Origin: Anaerolineae bacterium
Lineage (GTDB): Bacteria > Chloroflexota > Anaerolineae > UBA1429
DNA length: 64,000 nucleotides
Assembly: GCA_963675785.1 (NCBI GenBank)
Contig: OY776562.1
Span: forward strand, 2,784,001 to 2,848,000
Direction of reading: 5' to 3'
Position numbers and translations under genes: made by a program
Shown: positions 5,583 through 52,709 of the stretch, piece by piece
Position numbering within the stretch: position 1 is the first letter of the stretch
Layout of the letters: the number at the start of each line of letters is the position of its first letter
The notes under the pieces: generated by a model
Databases searched by the model: none
Seen by the model: the letters and a program-made list of their open reading frames with translations, nothing else
Told to the model about the DNA's origin: nothing

Positions 5583-5706
5583 CGAATAGTAGGCCTTGCT
5601 TTAGATGCTGTACTCGGTGATTCTACCATGCTGACCCCTGCTGCACAAATAATCAGCGCATCCACGCCTGTGGTATACTGGTTTTATAAAGTGAAAAGAG
5701 GTACTT

Positions 5707-6204
5707 GTGAGCCAACATCGGCCATCTATCGCTTTTAGAATACGGCAAAATCACGCCTTTGAACATGCCACATTGCATATTGCTTCAAAACATGGCCTTA
5801 GGCACCGCTTGGCCGGCATTTCCTATTGGTCTGGCTATTTGCTACTAGGCCAGGTTAGCACTTCTTTTGTACAACTTGCGGCAAATGAAGCACTACAATC
5901 ATTGAAAAACGGCCAAAGTGAATTAGCCATCCACTCTCACTGTGGAACCAATGTGGCCGCCACTGGCCTTATCGCCATTCTCGCCGCCCTGCTTTCTTGG
6001 GAGGCATGGCAAAATCTATGGTTAAGATCCCTCGGTATTGCTGCAGGATTGGTGCTCTCTGTTTTTGTTGGCCCCGATTTAGGAACAAGCATGCAAAAGC
6101 ATGTCACCACGACGCCTCATGTCGAGACCCTTGAAATAAAGGGCCTTTGCCGTTTACAGATAGGAAAGCTCGTAATCCATCAAGTCCGCACGGAGGCTCG
6201 CTAA
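5707..6204 (+). CDS. Conserved membrane-associated protein (DUF6391-like)
   Basis: RQNHAFEHAT and AIHSHCGTN motifs, two TM helices; stop abuts the holA start. Confidence 0.6.
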   Translation: MSQHRPSIAFRIRQNHAFEHATLHIASKHGLRHRLAGISYWSGYLLLGQVSTSFVQLAANEALQSLKNGQSELAIHSHCGTNVAATGLIAILAALLSWEAWQNLWLRSLGIAAGLVLSVFVGPDLGTSMQKHVTTTPHVETLEIKGLCRLQIGKLVIHQVRTEAR

Positions 6205-41746: not shown

Positions 41747-43189
41747 ATGCCCTCTTTGAGATTGACTTCTTCTGATCACATTAGAGACCGATGGAGCATC
41801 GGCCATGTGATGCTGTGCTGCCTGATGCTGTTACTCCTCACTTTATTATTAACAAGTTGTCGTTTCTTTGCGCCCTCAGAGGTGTCAGAACCCGTTTTAG
41901 CCCCTACATCATCCGTATTCGAAGAGACGCCTATACCTGTTACCACACCTTCTCTTCTTCCCCTAGAAACTACGCCGACGCCTTCTCCTCGTCCAACATC
42001 GCGTTCGGACTATGAGACTGTAACCCTATGGCATAGTCTCTCCCCGGACTCCCCCGAGGGACAGGCTTTGTCAGAATCTCTGGCTCGATTCGAGCAGGAG
42101 TATCCTCAGATTGTCGTCCTCGATCGCTATCGAGGTACAGATACACAGCTTTCAGAGATTCTATACGAGGCTGTCACAAATCTGAACATGCCCGATGTCG
42201 TCATTACCTCGTCCGGAACAATGGCCGAGTTGGCCAAAAGCGATGCCCTTGTTTCACTAGATGGCTTTTTGAACTGGGAACAAGACGAAGAGACCGAGTT
42301 TGAACACATCCTTTCCTCTCTGGGTTCCTGCTATGGCTGTGATGCGGGTATCTATTCGCTTCCCTATATGATTGACTCAATTGGTCTATGGTATAATCCG
42401 GAAATTTTAGACGGTCTGGGCATTGAAAAAGTACCGACGACCTGGCAAGAGTTTTCCATGACCTGCCAGTACATAAGCAGCTCTTTGGGCTCACCCGCCT
42501 TGTTGCTTGTACCTGATGGTAGGGTAGCACTAGCACTTGTTCTTAGCAGCGGTGAAATACCAACTGCAGAATCCCCTTTCTTTGAGCTGGGAGAAAATAC
42601 CTCCAGCGTACTTGAAACCATCCAGAACTTGGCTTGGGCCAACTCGATTCTGCTAGAAATGGATCAAGAAAATGCACTCAATCTGTTTCTGAATGGAGAA
42701 ATCCCATTCTGCATTTCTGGTACTGATTTCTTGAGTTCAGACGAGCTTGCTGCAAGCCAAATAGAGATTGCCCCTTTGCCGCAGTTAAATGCATCAGAGG
42801 CCACAAGTCTTGTCTACGGCTGGCATATCGGCATTAGTAAGGATGCTTCAGAATCCCGTGAACCTTCGTGGACGCTGGTACAATATTTGACATCAACACA
42901 AGAAGCCGCAGAAATCGCTCAAACCTCTGGACATCCGCCCGTAAGCCATCTGGCACTCTCTCTTGTAGGTACAGACGTTGCCCAGGAGCAAATGCTCTAC
43001 TCTAAAGCCAATGTCTTTTATGATAGTGAGCCCCTTGGTGAAAGCATAATAGGGATCGATGGAATCAAGGCAGTTCTTTCCCAAGTTTTAGTTGACATAA
43101 CAAGCGGGTCATATGTACCAAACGAGGCCCTCAAGCTGGCCCGTTCCAACATCTTGCGGCTGATTGCTTACTATGGCGTCACGCCTTGA
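41747..43189 (+). CDS. Extracellular solute-binding lipoprotein (sugar/G3P type)
   Basis: Lipobox LLTSC, PT linker, VTLWHS, IYSLPY, LWYN, PTTWQE; true start may be about 41809. Confidence 0.8.
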   Translation: MPSLRLTSSDHIRDRWSIGHVMLCCLMLLLLTLLLTSCRFFAPSEVSEPVLAPTSSVFEETPIPVTTPSLLPLETTPTPSPRPTSRSDYETVTLWHSLSPDSPEGQALSESLARFEQEYPQIVVLDRYRGTDTQLSEILYEAVTNLNMPDVVITSSGTMAELAKSDALVSLDGFLNWEQDEETEFEHILSSLGSCYGCDAGIYSLPYMIDSIGLWYNPEILDGLGIEKVPTTWQEFSMTCQYISSSLGSPALLLVPDGRVALALVLSSGEIPTAESPFFELGENTSSVLETIQNLAWANSILLEMDQENALNLFLNGEIPFCISGTDFLSSDELAASQIEIAPLPQLNASEATSLVYGWHIGISKDASESREPSWTLVQYLTSTQEAAEIAQTSGHPPVSHLALSLVGTDVAQEQMLYSKANVFYDSEPLGESIIGIDGIKAVLSQVLVDITSGSYVPNEALKLARSNILRLIAYYGVTP

Positions 43190-44738
43190 TAGGAGCCCGA
43201 TTTTGAGTTTCTTTATTGGTATTGATATCGGAACTACAAACACCAAAGCCGTCGCCTTTAATCCAGATGGACAGGTTATTGGACGAGCATCCCGCCCAAC
43301 ACCTGTTCAAAATCTGGGAAACCGTCAGGCGTTATACGCTCCCCAAAAGTTATGGGAAGCTGTTGTTGGAGCACTAAAAGACCTTGAAGAGCAAATTCCG
43401 AATTCCCATGCGCTCGGTATTTGCGTGGCCAGCATCGGTGAATCCGGTATTCCCCTCGATTATGCGGGGCTCCCTTGCTTTCCCTCCATTGCCTGGTTCG
43501 ATGAAAGAACCTTGCCTCAGGCAGCGTGGTGGGAAAACAGGATGGGGAAAAAGGAGATATTCCAAAACACTGGCCTCTCCCTCAGTCACATTTTTTCGTT
43601 GAACAAGCTCATGTGGTTGAGATCCCGCGAACCGGATGTTTTTACCAGAACCCGACGATGGCTGTGTATCTCGGACTATATCGCCTATAGGCTGTGCGGA
43701 GAGCAGGCTACAGGCTATTCCCTAGCATCCCGAACCATGGCCTTTGATCCGCTCAAAGCATGCTGGTCCAAAGAAATGCTGGCAGCAGCAACGATTTCAG
43801 AACAGCTGTGGCCGCAACCTCTACAAGAGGGGGCATTGTTGGGCATCGTCCTGCCAGAAATTGCGCAGGACATCTCCATGCTCAGCGAGACGCCCGTTTA
43901 TGTGGGGGGACACGATCATGTGGTGGCCGCACTTGCTGTAGGGGCGATCGAACCGGGTATCATGATTGATTCCACAGGAACCACAGAAACCGAAATGGTC
44001 GCTCTCAAGAGTATTGACAAGGCCTTGAACGAGAGCAACACTTCGTTCTGCCTAGGCCGCCATGTCGTCAAAGACAGATACTATGCCATCGCAGGCATCC
44101 TCGGTGCGGGCAGCATGATTCAGTGGATGGGCAGACTTTTGTATGGTTCAGAAGTCTCAAGAGATGATAGTATTGCCATGCTGACTCAGGCGGCTCGAAC
44201 CAGTTCTGTTGGTTCAAAAGGATTGTGGATTCTGCCACATATGGCCGGCAAAGGAGCGCCAAATCGTGATGAAGCCAGCAAGGCTGTTATCACCGGCCTG
44301 GGCTTGGATCATACCCATCAGGATATTGCTCGAGCCACCATCGAGGGATTGGCCTACGAACTGGCCTATCTTTGGGAAGCTCTAGAAGGCTTTACAGGAC
44401 AGCCTTCTCTGCGCACAATCTCTGTAGGGGGAGGATCGCAGAACGAATTCTGGATGCAGATCAAAGCGGACGTAACCAATCGTACGTTGTATGTTGCTTC
44501 TGAGGCAGAAGCTGTAGCAAAAGGAGCCGCTATGCTGGCTGGCATTGGACACGGCCTATGGCCCGACGCTCAAACTGCTGTAGAAGCCTGGCAAAGTAAT
44601 AGCTCGACTATTGTTCCAGATTCTGAGACAGCCAAAGAATATGCCCGACTTTGCTCTACGCTTCAGGGCATTCGCCCTATAGCACATGCTCTTGAACAAG
44701 GTTCCAAGCTCTTAAACCACCAATCGTCGGTAGGGTAG
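43164..44738 (+). CDS. FGGY family carbohydrate kinase (xylulokinase-like)
   Basis: GIDIGTTNTK, IAWFDER, GGHDH, STGTT, GGGSQN; start likely about 43203. Confidence 0.9.
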   Translation: MLTMASRLDRSPILSFFIGIDIGTTNTKAVAFNPDGQVIGRASRPTPVQNLGNRQALYAPQKLWEAVVGALKDLEEQIPNSHALGICVASIGESGIPLDYAGLPCFPSIAWFDERTLPQAAWWENRMGKKEIFQNTGLSLSHIFSLNKLMWLRSREPDVFTRTRRWLCISDYIAYRLCGEQATGYSLASRTMAFDPLKACWSKEMLAAATISEQLWPQPLQEGALLGIVLPEIAQDISMLSETPVYVGGHDHVVAALAVGAIEPGIMIDSTGTTETEMVALKSIDKALNESNTSFCLGRHVVKDRYYAIAGILGAGSMIQWMGRLLYGSEVSRDDSIAMLTQAARTSSVGSKGLWILPHMAGKGAPNRDEASKAVITGLGLDHTHQDIARATIEGLAYELAYLWEALEGFTGQPSLRTISVGGGSQNEFWMQIKADVTNRTLYVASEAEAVAKGAAMLAGIGHGLWPDAQTAVEAWQSNSSTIVPDSETAKEYARLCSTLQGIRPIAHALEQGSKLLNHQSSVG

Positions 44739-44741
44739 CAT

Positions 44742-47700
44742 ATGCCTCAAGACTATCCACTCATTCGCACAAAAACCATAGTCCCTCGGCTTCGGGACTC
44801 TCTTGTTCCGCGCCAACGACTCGTCGATCTATTACACAGCAATATTCATAACAAGCTGGTTCTTATCTCGGCAGGGGCAGGATACGGCAAAACTTCATTG
44901 CTCAACCAGTATGCTCATGATGCCGGAATTCCTGTCTGTTGGTATAGCCTGGATGAGAACGATAATAGTCTTGGTACCTTTAGCCGTTACCTGGTCCGTT
45001 CCATCCAGGAACAATTCCCTGCTTTTGGCCAAAGCGTTCTCACTTATCTACAGGATGTTGGAGCATTAGCAGATGTTGAACCTCTCGTAGGATTATTCCT
45101 CCAAGAGATAGAGTCCCATGCAAATCAGTTCTTTGCCCTGCTGTTGGATGACTATCATCAAGTTATACAAAGCGAGCCAGTCAATGCGTTGTTGGATGGC
45201 TTGTTGCGCTATCTGCCCGATCAATGCCACATCGTTTTAGCCTCGCGAGGCGTTCCCAGGCGCCTTACACTTTCTCGATTGGCCGCCCGCCAAGAAATAG
45301 CTGGATTTGGCGCCAGCGAATTGTGCTTTAACAGCGAGGAAATCAGAATGCTCCTCGCAAACATGGGGCACCTCGATCTGGATGAAAAAGAAATCGAGGC
45401 CATTGCCCAAAGAACAGAAGGCTGGGTGACGGGCATCATCCTTACCGCCCAAACTAGCTTGACCGACTCTGTTCGCGATATTTTGCATATCGTAGGGTCA
45501 AACGAAGGCGTATTTGATTATCTGGCTGAAGAAATCCTCTCGCAGCAGACGCATGAGGTGCAAGAGTTTCTTCTTGCGACATCTCTATTCCAACAAATGA
45601 CACCGAGCCTTTGTAATGCGCTGCTCGACATAGATCAATCGAGTCAGATTTTGCGGTATCTCGTTGAGGAAAACCTCTTTACCGTCTCTCTGGATGCCGG
45701 CAGCAAATGGTACGAATATCATCAACTGTTTCGCGAATTCCTGCGCACCCGCCTGGAAAGAGAAGACCCTGAGCTTTTCCGAGCCTTGTGCCTTAAACAA
45801 GCACAGCTTGTTTCGACGCAAGGAGATTGGGCGCAGGCCATTTCCAGTTATCTCACCGTACAAGCCTATGAACAAGCTGCCGAAGCCTTGGAAATCGTCG
45901 TTCAAGAAGGGTTCGTTTCTGGCGATTATGCCCAACTGGACATCTGGTTCGATCAATTTACCGATCAGCTTCTCAACAAGCATCCTCGACTTTTGCTCTT
46001 TCGTTCACGTGTAGCAACAGAGCGCGGCAATGCCACAGAAGCCGAACGTATCGCCCAGCAAGCCTATGCCGCCGCATGCGACCTACATGATGACGCCTCG
46101 GCTGCCCGCTCGTTGGTGCAATTGGCCGTATTGAGACGCTTTCAGGGCAAGCCGGCAGAAGCCATCAGCTTTTCAGAAAAGGCGCTTGCCCTGGTTGATC
46201 CTCAAGATCTGATTACCGCAGAACAGGCTCATCGTGATATTGGCATATCTCTCTGTATGCAAGGAGATATGGCTGGCGGCGTAGAGGAACTAGAAAAAGC
46301 TCTCGAGATCGCAATCAGCATACCCAACGAAACCGAAGTAGCTCTCATTTCTGCTGATATTGGTTCTGCAGAAATCATCCGGGGGCATCTCGAAAAAGCT
46401 AGACGCCACTATCATCAGTCGCTTCTTTATTGGCGTAGAACTGGCAATGATGCCAGATTAGCGCATACGCTACAAAGTCTGGGCCTGATTCATCACTATA
46501 TGGGCCAGTATGCCGAAGCCGAAAATCGCTTTGAGGAAAGCCTCAACAAAGCTAAGAGTGTCTCTGATTTACGAATACAAGCTTATGCCTTGACCAGCCT
46601 CGGGGACATGTACCGAGATATGCGTAGGTATGATCAAGCATCAACAGAATATGAACTTGCTTATGCTTGCGCTAACGAGGGGGCTCTAACCCCCATGATT
46701 AGTTACGCCATGTGTATGCGCGGAGATACACTCAGATTGAAGGGCGAATTAGATCTTGCGCATCAGGTATTGCTAGAAGCGCAAGATCAACTTAGTCCTG
46801 AAGAAATGCCCTTTGAACAGGGAATTTGCGATTTGGCTATGGGCGCCTATTTTCTCGAAACGAGCAATCTTCAGAAAGCTGAAGATCATTTGCGCCACGC
46901 ATTGGAGCTACTACAGGCAAGTAACAGTACACGGGATGTGGCCCGAACACACCTCTACCTGGCTAATCTTGCTTATAAACGGGGGCAAAGAGAAGAACTT
47001 GATGCACAGATATCCAATGCTGTAAGTTACGTTCAAGCGTTGGGAACAAGCCAGTTCATCGTCGCTGAGTCCGTCTCGATGATCGATATGCTCTATGCCT
47101 GCTCTCACGAGCGCCAGGGCAGATTTGATTTCGCCGAGATTTTCAACGCCATCGATACTTTGATCCATAAACCAGCCCTCGACATTAATTCAATTCTTTA
47201 TCAGATATCACTCCTTTCCCTGGATAACAACCGCATCTTGAAGGATAATGCCTTGGTGACCGACTGGGAATCAGAGATCGCCAAGCTCATGGTCTTTTTA
47301 TTCGCAGAGAACCCTACCGGCCTCAGACGAGACCGCGTCATCGATTTGCTTTGGCCTGAAGCCACACCTGCCAGGGGCAATTCGTTATTCCACTCAACTC
47401 TTTACCGATTGCGCTCTTCTCTGGGCAAAGATTTTATTATTCACAGCAAAGGGCTATACCTCCTCAACCCCGATATCTCTTGCTATTATGATACCCGCCG
47501 ATTGCAGGAATGCTTTGCTCAGGGACGCAATTCGGGGGATATGGCACATATCGCCCGACAAGAGGCTCTCAACATCTATCACACACCTTTTCTTGACCCC
47601 TTTGATCTGGAATGGTGCACTCAAAAGAGGGATCAATTACATGCACAGATGCTGGAATTAGTCATCTCAGAAGCACTGTACCAACTCCATACGGGCGACA

Positions 47701-47936
47701 TGGATACGTCAGAAAGCCTGTTCATCCGCGCCAGAGGGCTTGAGCCTTTTGATGAACGAGCCTATAGGGGCGTGATGTGGTGCAGGGCATCGCGCAATGA
47801 CAGAGCCGGGGCACTGCGCGAGTACAAGGAATGTGAAGTGATTTTGGCCAAAGAACTGGATGTCGAACCCTCTCTTGAGACGCTGGAGCTATACGATGCT
47901 ATTACCAATGGGGTTCCCTTGCCGCCGCTCGAATAA
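44742..47936 (+). CDS. Large transcriptional regulator: MalT-like STAND ATPase + TPR array + C-terminal SARP (wHTH-BTAD) module
   Basis: RTKTIVP..RQRL, AGAGYGKT, LLDDYH, TEGWVTG, YEYHQLF; TPR helices; RDRVIDLLWPE...STLYRLR; EPFDERAYR...LDVEPS. Confidence 0.88.
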   Translation: MPQDYPLIRTKTIVPRLRDSLVPRQRLVDLLHSNIHNKLVLISAGAGYGKTSLLNQYAHDAGIPVCWYSLDENDNSLGTFSRYLVRSIQEQFPAFGQSVLTYLQDVGALADVEPLVGLFLQEIESHANQFFALLLDDYHQVIQSEPVNALLDGLLRYLPDQCHIVLASRGVPRRLTLSRLAARQEIAGFGASELCFNSEEIRMLLANMGHLDLDEKEIEAIAQRTEGWVTGIILTAQTSLTDSVRDILHIVGSNEGVFDYLAEEILSQQTHEVQEFLLATSLFQQMTPSLCNALLDIDQSSQILRYLVEENLFTVSLDAGSKWYEYHQLFREFLRTRLEREDPELFRALCLKQAQLVSTQGDWAQAISSYLTVQAYEQAAEALEIVVQEGFVSGDYAQLDIWFDQFTDQLLNKHPRLLLFRSRVATERGNATEAERIAQQAYAAACDLHDDASAARSLVQLAVLRRFQGKPAEAISFSEKALALVDPQDLITAEQAHRDIGISLCMQGDMAGGVEELEKALEIAISIPNETEVALISADIGSAEIIRGHLEKARRHYHQSLLYWRRTGNDARLAHTLQSLGLIHHYMGQYAEAENRFEESLNKAKSVSDLRIQAYALTSLGDMYRDMRRYDQASTEYELAYACANEGALTPMISYAMCMRGDTLRLKGELDLAHQVLLEAQDQLSPEEMPFEQGICDLAMGAYFLETSNLQKAEDHLRHALELLQASNSTRDVARTHLYLANLAYKRGQREELDAQISNAVSYVQALGTSQFIVAESVSMIDMLYACSHERQGRFDFAEIFNAIDTLIHKPALDINSILYQISLLSLDNNRILKDNALVTDWESEIAKLMVFLFAENPTGLRRDRVIDLLWPEATPARGNSLFHSTLYRLRSSLGKDFIIHSKGLYLLNPDISCYYDTRRLQECFAQGRNSGDMAHIARQEALNIYHTPFLDPFDLEWCTQKRDQLHAQMLELVISEALYQLHTGDMDTSESLFIRARGLEPFDERAYRGVMWCRASRNDRAGALREYKECEVILAKELDVEPSLETLELYDAITNGVPLPPLE

Positions 47937-47956
47937 TAAAGCTTCTCCTTCACTGC

Positions 47957-47994
47957 ACAAAAAGAGATTTCCCTCAAAGGAAATCTCTTTTTGT
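47957..47994 (+). terminator. Intrinsic terminator after the regulator
   Basis: ACAAAAAGAGATTTCC-6 nt-GGAAATCTCTTTTTGT. Confidence 0.85.
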
Positions 47995-48002
47995 TATTCT
48001 TA

Positions 48003-48036
48003 CGTGAGTGTTTCGTGAGTGCCTCTGGAATATGAT
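48003..48036 (+). promoter_or_regulatory. Putative SARP-activated promoter: CGTGAGTG direct repeat (11-bp period) + -10 TATGAT
   Basis: CGTGAGTG at 48003-48010 and 48014-48021; TATGAT at 48031-48036; no consensus -35. Confidence 0.65.
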
Positions 48037-48067
48037 TAGGGAAGAATCGTTCATGGAGGTATATGTA

Positions 48068-48175
48068 ATGAAAAAGACCTATTACACCATCGTCTATATC
48101 GTGCTCTCTCTCACAGCTCTGGTTATGGCCAGCGGCGCCCCAGTTGCCTTCGGCGGCAGCGGCACCGGCGGCTGA
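48068..48175 (+). CDS. 35-aa peptide precursor, copy 1 (MKKTYYTIVYIVLSLTALVMASGAPVAFGGSGTGG); not in the ORF track
   Basis: GGAGG RBS at 48055-48059; signal-peptide-like; duplicated with synonymous changes only. Confidence 0.85.
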   Translation: MKKTYYTIVYIVLSLTALVMASGAPVAFGGSGTGG

Positions 48176-48221
48176 TCTCTCACCTGTCCATATCCATCAT
48201 TCCTAATTGGGAGAAACAACA

Positions 48222-48329
48222 ATGAAAAAGACCTATTACACCATCGTCTATATCGTGCTCTCTCTCACGGCTCTGGTTATGGCCAGCGGCGCCCCAGTTG
48301 CCTTCGGCGGCAGCGGCACTGGCGGCTGA
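48222..48329 (+). CDS. 35-aa peptide precursor, copy 2 (identical protein); not in the ORF track
   Basis: GGGAGA RBS at 48209-48214; differs from copy 1 at Thr16 (ACA/ACG) and Thr33 (ACC/ACT). Confidence 0.85.
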   Translation: MKKTYYTIVYIVLSLTALVMASGAPVAFGGSGTGG

Positions 48330-48354
48330 TCAAACAGTCTATTGATGCCTTGCG

Positions 48355-48969
48355 ATGATACTTTTAGTTGCCGTCATTTTCTCGATCGCCATCGCGCTCA
48401 TTCGAGGCGGATCCTTTAACAATCTGGGGCAGGTTAAATTCAGATACGGGTGGCTCGCCATTCTAGCCTTTGCTCTGCAAGCCGTCATCATCTGGGCTCC
48501 CCTCGAATCCGGCAATGGTTTAACGCATCCAAGAACTCTTTTATTGCTCGGATCGTACGGAATTCTTGTGGCAGTCGTCTTGTTGAATCGTAAGCTAGCA
48601 GGCATTATCATCATCGGTTTGGGACTTTTACTCAACCTGACCGTAATGGTCGCTAATGACGGATTTATGCCCGTTGATTCCTCTGTCCTCAGAACAGCAG
48701 GTCTTGAAGAATTAGCCCTATCTGATGAGACGGGTTCCCGGCTCACATCAACCAAAGATATTCTGCTCCCGCGAGAACAGACCAATCTTTGGGTTCTAAG
48801 TGACATATTCGTTATTCCCGCCAATTGGCCCCTGTCTACGATCTTTAGCATCGGCGACGTTTTCTTGGCGATAGGCGTGTTCGTTTTTCTTCAGCGGTAC
48901 CTATCAAAATCGCCCGCCATGCAGAACAGTGAACAAACCAGTCCTGTCGACCCAGATTTTGAGGAGTAA
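48355..48969 (+). CDS. DUF5317-like membrane protein
   Basis: RGGS..L N-terminus, GLLLNLTVMVANDGFMPV, LSDIF, IFSIGDVFLAIG; about 5 TM helices. Confidence 0.8.
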   Translation: MILLVAVIFSIAIALIRGGSFNNLGQVKFRYGWLAILAFALQAVIIWAPLESGNGLTHPRTLLLLGSYGILVAVVLLNRKLAGIIIIGLGLLLNLTVMVANDGFMPVDSSVLRTAGLEELALSDETGSRLTSTKDILLPREQTNLWVLSDIFVIPANWPLSTIFSIGDVFLAIGVFVFLQRYLSKSPAMQNSEQTSPVDPDFEE

Positions 48970-48973
48970 TAGC

Positions 48974-49219
48974 ATGGCAAAAGACGATCTTCAAGAACTT
49001 GTTGGTACTGCGATCATCAGTAGTCAATTTAGAAGTGAGTTGATCACAAACACAGCGCGAGCTATAGAGGACTTTAACCTCTCTCCTGAAGAGCGTCTGT
49101 TCGTCAGCAATATTCGCGCCAACACATTCCAATCTTTTGCGCAGCAGCTGCATGATTGGATATCTGATGAATCACCTGTGGTCATGCATCGAGTGCCCAC
49201 AGCCATTATTACGCGGTAA
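48974..49219 (+). CDS. 81-aa protein resembling NHLP-leader-like (Os1348/Franean1_4349-type) proteins
   Basis: GAGGAG RBS at 48961-48966; LQELVGTAIISSQFRSELI...FNLSPEER pattern. Confidence 0.65.
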   Translation: MAKDDLQELVGTAIISSQFRSELITNTARAIEDFNLSPEERLFVSNIRANTFQSFAQQLHDWISDESPVVMHRVPTAIITR

Positions 49220-49268
49220 CAGGCACCTGTTGCCTCCTGGCGCTACTAAAGACGCCAAGTCCCTTTTG

Positions 49269-49304
49269 AAGTGCGCCTGACACCCCCCTGTCAGGCGCAC
49301 TTTC
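49269..49304 (+). terminator. Terminator closing the peptide operon
   Basis: AAGTGCGCCTGACA-C6-TGTCAGGCGCACTT. Confidence 0.8.
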
Positions 49305-51440: not shown

Positions 51441-52709
51441 TTATATATTTGCCTTTTTTATTTTGATCAACATCCTCATCATAGATCCTGTTATAAGCCT
51501 AAGGCCCCCAATTATCCACAAAGCCGCCTGAATACCTACCAAACTAGATATAGCTGTGCCAAGAAGCGGACCAGCAAAAGCACAGATATTATCAATCATG
51601 GCGTTAGCCGCTGCAAAGGTAGGTCTTTGGTCTTGAGGTGAAACGCGATAAAGCGTCTCGGTGAGAAAAATGCTAAATCCCGAGTTAAAAATGCCGCCAG
51701 CCACAGCAGATATTAGTAATTGAGGAGGGTTCACTGCAAGAGCCGTCAGTATTGGATACAACACGGTTGCCACACAAGTCAGCCACAGCCAGCGCCTTAC
51801 ACTCTGTTTGCGTAAGAGCCGGCTCAAGGCTAAATAGCCCAAGGTAGAAAAAAGCTGCTGAACCGTGAGAATGATCCCGATCCAGGCGTCGCTAGCTCCG
51901 ACTTCACGTACCCGGTAGATCGAATAGAGCGCCGCAGGCATCTGAAGGCTGAGTCGAAAGGCGAGAACGAGAATAGCATATTTGCGAAAAGCCGGTGCAT
52001 CCTTGATTAATTGCAACATCCCCTTGAAACCCAGGCTTTGCTTATTCTTTGCTTGGGGAAGGGCCGAGGTAGGAATCTGCAGCTGGCGCATGTTCAGATT
52101 ACCGAGAATCGCTGGCACAATCGCAAAACCAAATAATACAGAGTAATTTATGGGGTAGGGAGCCCAGTCAAGCCACTGACCGGCAAGAAAACCAACGACA
52201 GCCGCGGATAGGCCGTTCACTGCCAGCCGCATCGAGAGCATATTAGCCCGTCGTCTCTCTGTCGTTGCTGCCCCCAGGATCGTCGTCATACTGACATTGC
52301 CTACAGCAGTGGCGCCTGACAGGAGGCTTCGGCCAAAAACCAACAGGTAGGGAGAAATCGCGGCGGAAAGAAAGGGCAATATAGAAAAGGTGCTGATTCC
52401 GATGCGAAAAACCGCTCTTCCACCGTTCACTGCTTTGACCAAGTCACCCTTGCGTTGAATAAAAGCCGCAGCTGGTAATGCAGCAATCGTCATCAACAAT
52501 GCGGGCAGTGATGTGAGTAACCCTACTAACATATCTGAGGAACCCAGACGAACGAGATACACCGAGAGAAAAGCTGTTATCCCGCTTCCAATAATGGCCT
52601 GAATTGCGGCATCGCGATAAAGGATATGTTCATTGTACTCGTCGCGATTCAATAAACGACGAATCCCCCGCAGCTTGAACATTTGCGGTTTTTCAGGCAT
52701 AGGCTCCAC
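51441..52709 (-). CDS. MFS transporter
   Basis: About 12 hydrophobic segments, MFS-like loops. Confidence 0.85.
   Translation of the reverse strand: MEPMPEKPQMFKLRGIRRLLNRDEYNEHILYRDAAIQAIIGSGITAFLSVYLVRLGSSDMLVGLLTSLPALLMTIAALPAAAFIQRKGDLVKAVNGGRAVFRIGISTFSILPFLSAAISPYLLVFGRSLLSGATAVGNVSMTTILGAATTERRRANMLSMRLAVNGLSAAVVGFLAGQWLDWAPYPINYSVLFGFAIVPAILGNLNMRQLQIPTSALPQAKNKQSLGFKGMLQLIKDAPAFRKYAILVLAFRLSLQMPAALYSIYRVREVGASDAWIGIILTVQQLFSTLGYLALSRLLRKQSVRRWLWLTCVATVLYPILTALAVNPPQLLISAVAGGIFNSGFSIFLTETLYRVSPQDQRPTFAAANAMIDNICAFAGPLLGTAISSLVGIQAALWIIGGLRLITGSMMRMLIKIKKANI

Follow-up and report, generated by a model that had tools for sequence, protein, structure and literature searches.

The 64,000-nucleotide stretch of Anaerolineae contig OY776562.1 (Chloroflexota; assembly GCA_963675785.1, positions 2,784,001 to 2,848,000), hereafter the window, carries a regulator gene and, directly behind it, a compact operon of two identical peptide genes, a gene for a membrane protein of the DUF5317 family and a gene for a small protein related to Os1348. 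We found these parts to form one conserved cassette in Chloroflexota, and, as the main new result, we found DUF5317 paired with a peptide of the same build in two other phyla, usually together with an HD-GYP protein. The cassette looks like a self-contained, autoregulated peptide-signaling unit, for which we infer the topology, the binding partners, the sign of the loop and whether the peptide is cleaved. A preliminary description, made from the letters of the window, had named a regulator, two terminators, direct repeats, twin open reading frames (ORFs), a DUF5317 gene and an 81-amino-acid (aa) gene, and every one of these components was found at the position claimed for it:

44742 to 47936, + strand: gene for a 1064-aa activator with a STAND NTPase, a TPR region and a SARP module (winged helix-turn-helix plus BTAD), from the ORF and its domain matches
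47957 to 47994, + strand: terminator-like hairpin that ends the regulator gene, 16 pairs followed by a T-rich tail
48003 to 48010 and 48014 to 48021, + strand: two direct repeats CGTGAGTG, 11 bp apart, a putative SARP site by its sequence and conserved layout
48031 to 48036, + strand: -10-like hexamer TATGAT, 9 nt past the 3' repeat
48068 to 48175, + strand: peptide gene, copy 1, 35 aa, with GGAGG 8 nt before the ATG (family profile E 3.6e-17)
48222 to 48329, + strand: peptide gene, copy 2, 35 aa, with an identical product (family profile E 2.8e-18)
48355 to 48969, + strand: gene for the DUF5317 membrane protein, 204 aa (PF17248, E 3.9e-35)
48974 to 49219, + strand: gene for the Os1348/NHLP-clan small protein, 81 aa, starting 4 nt past the DUF5317 stop (NF038399)
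49268 to 49303, + strand: terminator-like hairpin that ends the operon, 15 pairs, 8 of them G-C

Regulator and promoter

The regulator has the build of STAND proteins of the MalT type, that is, an N-terminal P-loop NTPase followed by a repeat-containing sensor region. Walker A (GAGYGKTS) and Walker B (LLLDDYH) motifs could be read off the translation, and in the NCBIfam scan the MalT-like model NF003420 aligned to residues 7-524 with an E-value of 8.8e-72. As a MalT equivalog the protein was excluded, given its 242 bits against the NF003420 cut-off of 537. Its many TPR matches in Pfam and NCBIfam include TPR_12 at an E-value of 9.9e-29 and TPR_MalT at 57 bits (cut-off 45). Among its matches at E ≤ 1 there was no Pfam or NCBIfam model specific for RRNPP receptors, and the regulator, which may act in a similar manner, is not a member of that family.

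At the C-terminus, Pfam recognized a BTAD domain (E 2.2e-15). Upon modeling the last 245 residues (820-1064) together with 16 orthologues, we obtained a structure with a predicted local distance difference test (pLDDT) of 96.6, which matched the SARP domain of AfsR in 8k60 and 8hvr, both of them structures of transcription complexes, with E-values of 2.4e-10 to 6e-10 and template modeling (TM) scores of 0.79-0.82 over ~245 columns, and which also matched EmbR (2ff4). Because the model matches the SARP domains of AfsR and EmbR, the winged helix that Pfam missed is nevertheless present in the regulator. The C-terminus thus consists of an OmpR-type winged helix followed by the helical BTAD domain, which is the order that defines SARPs, and the earlier claim of a genuine SARP DNA-binding module is borne out by the confidence of the model and by its match to AfsR.

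The region ahead of the peptide genes shows a corresponding promoter. SARP target promoters contain direct repeats 11 or 22 bp apart, with the 3' repeat lying ~8 bp from the -10 element, according to the available passages of PMC10936776; in the window, the two repeats are 11 bp apart and TATGAT follows 9 nt on, which has the appearance of such a target. The hexamer was absent from the output of a generic sigma-70 scan because it lacks a -35 match, as is expected of a promoter of the SARP type. The 19-nt repeat pair had a single perfect match in the 3.2-Mb genome, and with up to two mismatches we found no other site, the reversed-pattern control giving four. Between positions 47700 and 49500, four terminator-like hairpins were found compared to 1.4 ± 1.3 in shuffled sequences.

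The preliminary description had assigned the SARP site layout to the promoter of the window, and we observed the same layout in almost all orthologous loci. In front of the first peptide gene, nearly every regulator-linked locus presented two to three direct repeats spaced by 11-12 bp, with a TATAAT-like hexamer ~8-10 nt further on (TATAAT, TATACT or TAGAAT at the corresponding -10 position). The repeats themselves are clade-specific and comprise CGTGAGTG, AGTAAGTG, AGCTAAAC, TTGCGAGA, TTGTAAGT, TTGTCAGT, CGTTCAGAG, GGTGAGTG, GCTAAGCG, TTGAAGCCTG and GTGACTTTT. Such a constant layout with a turnover of the repeat sequences is the pattern of co-evolving protein-DNA pairs, and hence links the regulator to the operon. 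Action of the regulator on the peptide operon, probably by binding to the repeats, is therefore well supported by the sequence comparison.

Peptide genes and the conserved cassette

Both peptide genes encode MKKTYYTIVYIVLSLTALVMASGAPVAFGGSGTGG, and the two copies differ at two nucleotides, both synonymous. When we searched the genome of the window with the profile of the peptide family, these two ORFs were the only matches, the next one (E 0.04) lying within a 126-aa frame. Relatives have a conserved N-terminal part and a variable tail; a junction of the form (A/S/G)-G-A-P is followed by an aromatic residue three positions past the Pro and by a variable, Gly-rich tail, which in some clades contains Cys pairs. 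One to five such genes stand in tandem per locus, and sequences like a Shine-Dalgarno site (GGAGG and variants) precede most of the copies in related loci. In a sample of 19 peptide genes (171 pairs; 23 codons ending at the G-A-P junction), the ratio of non-synonymous to synonymous differences (pN/pS) was 0.40 in frame compared to 1.17 and 2.71 in the other two frames, and the two copies of locus L009 differ by 13 synonymous and 4 non-synonymous changes. This frame-specific purifying selection indicates that the peptide ORFs are translated genes under constraint, so that their designation as real genes in the preliminary description holds.

The database contained 301 relatives at E ≤ 0.01, and among the 120 listed, none carried a Pfam family and all of the given names were "hypothetical protein" or an uninformative label. 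Pfam and NCBIfam scans of nine peptides in all gave no meaningful match. A lipobox with its invariant +1 Cys was found at the junction of none of the peptides listed, and the peptide of the window lacks Cys altogether. Two Cys residues stand near the C-terminus in L051, L053, L054, L076, L077, L092 and L096 (e.g., ...GAPICIMC and ...GGSSACGSC), where they could serve in a disulfide, in a ring or in metal binding. Runs of N interrupt the tandem peptide arrays of L026 (~1150-1250) and L073 (~5620-5720), making copy numbers uncertain there. As the first pattern used for the peptides, (A/G/S)GAP, missed SGGP, AAAP, IAAP and VGAP, the counts given below were made with a widened pattern.

The proposal that the parts belong together as one cassette stood up well upon comparison across genomes. 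DUF5317 was present in 41 of 61 genomes of the same class, the window's own counted, and in 32 of the 36 of the same family. Tandem small ORFs (one to five) of like build lay upstream in 16 of 30 loci, the window's own included, and tblastn detected an Os1348-like ORF at 14 of these 16 as well. When the flanks were extended, a full-length regulator orthologue of 36-48% identity was located directly upstream on the same strand at 12 of 15 loci; as the contig ended within 600 nt in the remaining three, this amounts to 12 of the 12 assessable. A wider scan with one genome per species added 80 loci, nearly all labeled Chloroflexota, of which 55 had at least 2500 nt of upstream sequence. Regulator and peptide were both present in 36 of these 55, the regulator only in 1, the peptide only in 6 and neither in 12. 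The regulator-only locus, L114, does contain a peptide that the pattern overlooked, and in three of the six peptide-only loci a regulator was visible below the set criterion. The peptide pattern occurred elsewhere three times in 1.29 Mb of strand-sequence from the 80 loci, compared to ~70 ORFs just upstream of DUF5317. Since related genomes are not independent, all of these figures are counts rather than tests.

Seven related genomes (G005, G006, G009, G011, G016, G021 and G024) have two DUF5317 matches, and for at least some of these the pair comprises one regulator-type copy and one that lies behind an HD-GYP-like gene. DUF5317 loci that lack the regulator were usually found behind an HD-GYP gene, with a small ORF ahead of that gene.

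The pairing of peptide and DUF5317 extends beyond Chloroflexota. Two other phyla were searched for DUF5317, which turned up in 52 of 61 genomes of the first and 55 of 151 of the second, and from each phylum we sampled 20 loci, taking the highest-scoring matches at least ~4 kb from the contig start. In 31 of these 40 loci, a peptide of 24-48 aa and of the same build lay close to DUF5317 and on its strand, with the pattern occurring once elsewhere; three of the nine loci without a pattern match have less than 1900 nt of upstream sequence, and the peptides of L105, L171 and L179 were called by eye and stand outside the pattern counts. The usual order is peptide, HD-GYP gene, DUF5317, the peptide lying ~1.3-2.3 kb upstream of DUF5317, as seen in L082, L086, L089, L091, L098, L111, L116, L119, L120 and L151-L190. 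A MASE9 domain was found on three of the seven HD-GYP partners scanned (L082, L086 and L111). Peptides of this HD-GYP type consist of a basic N-terminus, one hydrophobic helix, a junction of the form small-G-small and an aromatic residue a few positions on, after which they stop; they end in (S/A/G)G(A/G/S)-x-x-(K/R)-(W/F), or, in a Bacillota-like set, in LAGGA-x-(F/Y)-x-(W/L). The HD-GYP-type locus L163 has two tandem peptide copies, 1452 and 1666 nt upstream of DUF5317, and tandem copies are therefore not confined to the Chloroflexota type.

These data agree with two expectations of the preliminary description, namely that precursor-like small ORFs should lie beside DUF5317 in other genomes, a prediction that it had itself exposed to refutation, and that DUF5317 should adjoin HD-GYP and GGDEF signaling proteins, here seen as HD-GYP neighbors and as GGDEF fusions. 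The pairing in 31 of 40 loci indicates that peptide and DUF5317 form a constant pair with a variable output partner: a STAND-SARP regulator with an Os1348-like protein in Chloroflexota, an HD-GYP phosphodiesterase with or without MASE9 elsewhere, or a PAS-GAF-GGDEF cyclase fused to DUF5317 itself. Judging from these neighbors, the context of the cassette is one of signaling and not of metabolism.

DUF5317, the Os1348-like protein and a possible signaling route

DUF5317, the constant partner of the peptides, is encoded once in the genome of the window and matches PF17248 with 121.5 bits (cut-off 25) over profile positions 2-151 of 151. PF17248 was its only Pfam match at E ≤ 1, with no match to the AgrB family or to A8 (PF01252). 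The family is large (6158 clusters at 50% identity, E ≤ 0.001), and our literature search returned no paper mentioning DUF5317 and none relevant for PF17248, IPR035168, TM1466 or TM1468. The structural model (pLDDT 88.1) presents five predicted transmembrane helices, the fourth and fifth of them separated by a small beta unit. Residues N78, N94, N101, G103, M105, P106, D150, S165, G167 and D168 are retained by no fewer than 155 of the 158 diverse representatives compared. By the positive-inside rule, the beta unit, the motif N101-G-G-x-M-P, D150 and S165-x-G-D168 are predicted to lie outside, on the same side as the peptide junction. A Foldseek search of the model against the PDB gave no match at E ≤ 0.001, a wide search with VIA-align gave helical hairpins only (best Z 6.2), and the ESM Atlas yielded no usable match. 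Predicting a complex of DUF5317 with the peptide resulted in a median score of 0.31 compared to a mark of 0.32, which weighs neither for binding nor against it.

Fusion proteins give a further view of the family. DUF5317 is fused to PAS-GAF-GGDEF in P0215 and in a 987-aa ORF of L152 (4025-6985), and its C-terminus is fused to an Os1348/Frankia_peptide-like domain in P0192 and P0257. Further fusions, to TPR regions and to transporters of the major facilitator superfamily (MFS) (P0135, P0234 and P0277-P0282), are left unexplained by a receptor model. As the PAS-GAF-GGDEF fusions fit a sensor module better than a peptidase, we rank a role of DUF5317 as a receptor first, with a peptidase, suggested by the invariant polar residues and the MFS fusions, as the main rival.

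The 81-aa protein, whose gene is translationally close-coupled to that of DUF5317, belongs to the "Os1348 family NHLP clan protein" model NF038399 (44.8 bits, cut-off 40), while the Pfam model Frankia_peptide remained at 29.2 bits, under its cut-off of 48. It consists of a conserved helical part of 60 residues and a variable tail. When a profile of 23 Os1348-like homologues was compared with the PDB, it matched 6lk7 (E 1.5e-4), an 85-residue chain named "nitrile hydratase, alpha chain"; its length and annotation are those given for Os1348 in the available passages of PMC7726476. Os1348 of Pseudomonas sp. Os17, with 85 aa, is the founding member; the same passages link it to antibiotic activity and place it in a cluster with GNAT, HEXXH and SagB-like genes.

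An Os1348-like gene was found by profile search in 41 of 45 assessable peptide loci, a count that supersedes the 26 of 45 from tblastn with a single query, and two of the four loci without it are of the HD-GYP type. It was found in none of the 40 loci sampled from the two other phyla. In three loci (L059, L078, which is on the same contig as L027, and L088), the gene stands between the peptide gene and DUF5317. Because the Os1348-like protein co-occurs with the STAND-SARP regulator and not with HD-GYP proteins, and because it is sometimes fused to DUF5317, it is a candidate relay, and we infer that it joins DUF5317 to the TPR sensor of the regulator.

Modification enzymes and a leader-cleaving exporter, as expected near the precursor of a ribosomally synthesized and post-translationally modified peptide (RiPP) of the NHLP kind, were not found: only the peptide genes, DUF5317 and the 81-aa gene lie between the two terminators. 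The ORFs that flank the cassette look like housekeeping genes by eye. Two genes downstream, on the opposite strand, lies a 422-aa ORF that resembles a multi-helix transporter (51441-52709, - strand), for which conservation with the cassette was not seen as far as examined. Upstream, a 524-aa ORF (43164-44738), which looks like a sugar kinase by eye, ends 3 nt before the ATG of the regulator (44742); this gap leaves no space for a promoter of the regulator's own, and the two genes could thus be co-transcribed.

The reading that we put first, tentatively and short of calling it probable, is that the peptide is a signal, that DUF5317 is its membrane receptor and that the Os1348-like protein relays the signal to the activator in a positive loop. 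The STAND-TPR-SARP protein would bind the two repeats, spaced by 11 bp and standing in for a -35 box, and would switch on one operon comprising the two 35-aa peptide copies, DUF5317 and the Os1348-like gene. The peptide would insert in the membrane with its basic N-terminus inside and its junction, aromatic residue and Gly-rich tail outside, whereupon general signal peptidase may release the tail, or the peptide may remain tethered. DUF5317 would recognize the junction via its invariant extracytoplasmic residues, and its state could pass via its cytoplasmic tail to the Os1348-like protein and from there to the sensor region of the regulator, so that more peptide would lead to more transcription.

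A wider form of this proposal is possible, but we regard it as doubtful: DUF5317 and a single-helix peptide of 24-55 aa (basic N-terminus, helix, small-G-small junction, aromatic residue) may constitute a widespread and so far undescribed signal-input module of peptide ligand and DUF5317 receptor, which in several phyla would feed the turnover of cyclic di-GMP (c-di-GMP) through HD-GYP proteins (some of them with MASE9) or a fused GGDEF domain, and in Chloroflexota would feed a STAND-SARP regulator, with the Os1348-like protein as a cytoplasmic adaptor from the membrane to the TPR region instead of a natural-product precursor.

Several observations weigh against the receptor reading. Thirteen residues of DUF5317 hardly vary (three Asn, two Asp and one Ser, along with Gly, Met, Pro and Leu), a set that recalls an active site more than it does a typical sensor pocket. 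With ~20 residues, the hydrophobic stretch of the peptide exceeds what is usual for a signal peptide that is cleaved off and would suit a permanent membrane anchor of the kind seen in small subunit proteins, and in the HD-GYP type only 4-7 residues would stand outside the membrane. The fusions of DUF5317 to MFS transporters are unaccounted for by a pure receptor role. Moreover, the fusion proteins are automatic gene calls on metagenomes, in which read-through errors can occur, and the relatedness of the genomes means that our counts overstate the number of independent events.

Some of these observations would be met if DUF5317 were instead a dedicated leader peptidase, which we consider rather unlikely. 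Such an enzyme would cut the (A/S)-G-A-P junction at the outer membrane face, and the tail, e.g., APVAFGGSGTGG, would be the pheromone, re-imported and then recognized by the regulator's TPR region in the manner of RRNPP systems. Besides its enzyme-like invariant polar residues, DUF5317 shares with the signal peptidase II LspA a small, polytopic build and two conserved Asp residues at the predicted outer membrane boundary (D150 and D168, 18 residues apart), and VFSxGD, the last of its motifs, can be aligned to VFNVAD, which lies in the final helix of LspA from the same genomes, giving a common VF(N/S)x(A/G)D. The helix of its partner peptide ends in L-A-(S/G)-G-A, which by the familiar consensus is close to a lipobox minus the Cys. 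In hhalign, the comparison with LspA scored 26.7-27.2 (P ~0.002-0.003), above the reversed control (13.9) and above all of the 30 block shuffles (maximum 25.8). A conserved leader, a variable tail and tandem copies suit a precursor, the DUF5317-MFS fusions recall fusions of peptidase and exporter, and a TPR regulator followed by a gene for a small secreted peptide is the synteny of RRNPP systems. However, the hhalign probability was 11-14% for a weak alignment driven by one motif; DUF5317 matched no solved protease fold and has five helices compared to the four of LspA, which was not listed in the fold searches with the DUF5317 model; and the junction of its peptides lacks Cys. A true LspA was found in 21 of the 21 genomes searched. 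A peptidase is also hard to accommodate with the PAS-GAF-GGDEF fusions, leaves the near-obligatory Os1348-like protein without a role and would need an importer that the cassette does not encode. As A-S-G followed by A-P is by the usual rule already acceptable to general signal peptidase, no special enzyme is required. The cleavage of the precursors by DUF5317, as put forward in the preliminary description, is hence not supported by the fold searches, by the comparison with LspA or by the fusions, which suit a sensor.

Alternatively, the small proteins may resemble other membrane microproteins of bacteria and be stable single-pass subunits of a DUF5317 sensory complex that responds to another envelope or chemical cue and controls the STAND-SARP regulator or the c-di-GMP enzymes, which we deem unlikely. 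The hydrophobic helix of the peptide is of full length, the HD-GYP-type peptide stops 4-7 residues past this helix and carries there a Lys/Arg-Trp pair of the sort common at membrane interfaces, and the aromatic residue four positions past the G-A pair is common to both peptide types. The cytoplasmic N-terminus (MKWGEKV...GVRGLY) is conserved across genera, which would be unusual for a discarded signal peptide, and MASE9 has been suggested to bind a ligand within the membrane in the available passages of a preprint (10.1101/2021.11.05.467447), passages that mention neither DUF5317 nor "small protein". By contrast, up to five identical tandem copies next to a single DUF5317 suit a consumed product better than a 1:1 subunit, the tails of the Chloroflexota type are long and variable, some of them Cys-rich, and the operon appears to be driven by a dedicated activator with a single target.

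Least probable, and in our view very unlikely, is a minimal bacteriocin or RiPP cluster in which the SARP is a pathway activator, a secreted antimicrobial is made from the 35-aa peptides and/or the Os1348-like protein as its precursors and DUF5317 serves processing or immunity: SARPs are known as activators of antibiotic clusters, Os1348 itself has been tied to antibiotic activity and multi-copy precursors with variable cores are typical of bacteriocins, but no modifying enzyme, exporter or immunity ABC system lies between the two terminators, the GNAT, HEXXH and SagB-like genes of Os17 have no counterpart, and an antibiotic role would be unnatural for the DUF5317-peptide pair beside c-di-GMP enzymes in other phyla.

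Relation to known systems

In the RRNPP cassettes of Firmicutes (PlcR-PapR, NprR-NprX, Rap-Phr and Rgg-SHP), as in the cassette described here, a cytoplasmic TPR-type regulator is followed by a small gene, the product of which begins like a signal peptide and ends in a short variable part, and the regulator probably controls the peptide gene. In contrast to the N-terminal helix-turn-helix of RRNPP proteins, however, the 1064-aa regulator combines a STAND ATPase with a SARP module at its C-terminus, the host belongs to Chloroflexota, and the cassette has two extra conserved genes (DUF5317 and the Os1348-like gene) and no linked importer. Systems of the agr type comprise a precursor, a membrane processing protein, a membrane receptor and a regulator. 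Here, too, the gene of a small precursor accompanies that of a dedicated polytopic membrane protein, alongside a signaling output, and the trio of the other phyla (peptide, HD-GYP protein with or without MASE9, DUF5317) shares this three-part logic. Both forms differ from agr in that DUF5317 has no AgrB-family match, that the output is a SARP activator or c-di-GMP turnover and not a histidine kinase, and that there is no indication of a thiolactone in the cassette.

Large SARPs such as AfsR (SARP, NOD and TPR) have the same three modules, the same SARP fold and repeats one helical turn apart beside the -10 element, whereas in our regulator the order is reversed, with the ATPase first, the TPR region next and the SARP module last, the ATPase is MalT-like and the putative target is a peptide operon instead of an antibiotic pathway. 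The 81-aa protein resembles the Os1348/NHLP leaders in passing NF038399; unlike these, it has no GNAT, HEXXH or SagB-like neighbors, no double-glycine site and no transporter, and it is coupled to DUF5317, to which it is fused in some genomes, and to the STAND-SARP regulator. By analogy, the cassette may work like peptide signaling of the RRNPP or agr type, with the regulator as a rearranged relative of the large SARPs, the functional steps being suggested by sequence and context. As far as sequence comparison can tell, the peptide, DUF5317 and their wiring are in no described family, and the titles and abstract openings among the literature matches listed did not describe such a cassette.

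To our knowledge, no peptide signaling system is known in Chloroflexota, and our literature search found none. If the proposed reading is true, the cassette would be the first candidate peptide signaling system for this phylum. It would give a function to DUF5317 and a concrete partner to the orphan sensor domain MASE9, and it would call into question the practice of automatically taking small NHLP-like proteins for RiPP precursors. Overall, genes of 24-48 aa, which are readily overlooked or labeled "hypothetical", can form the conserved core of a signaling unit.

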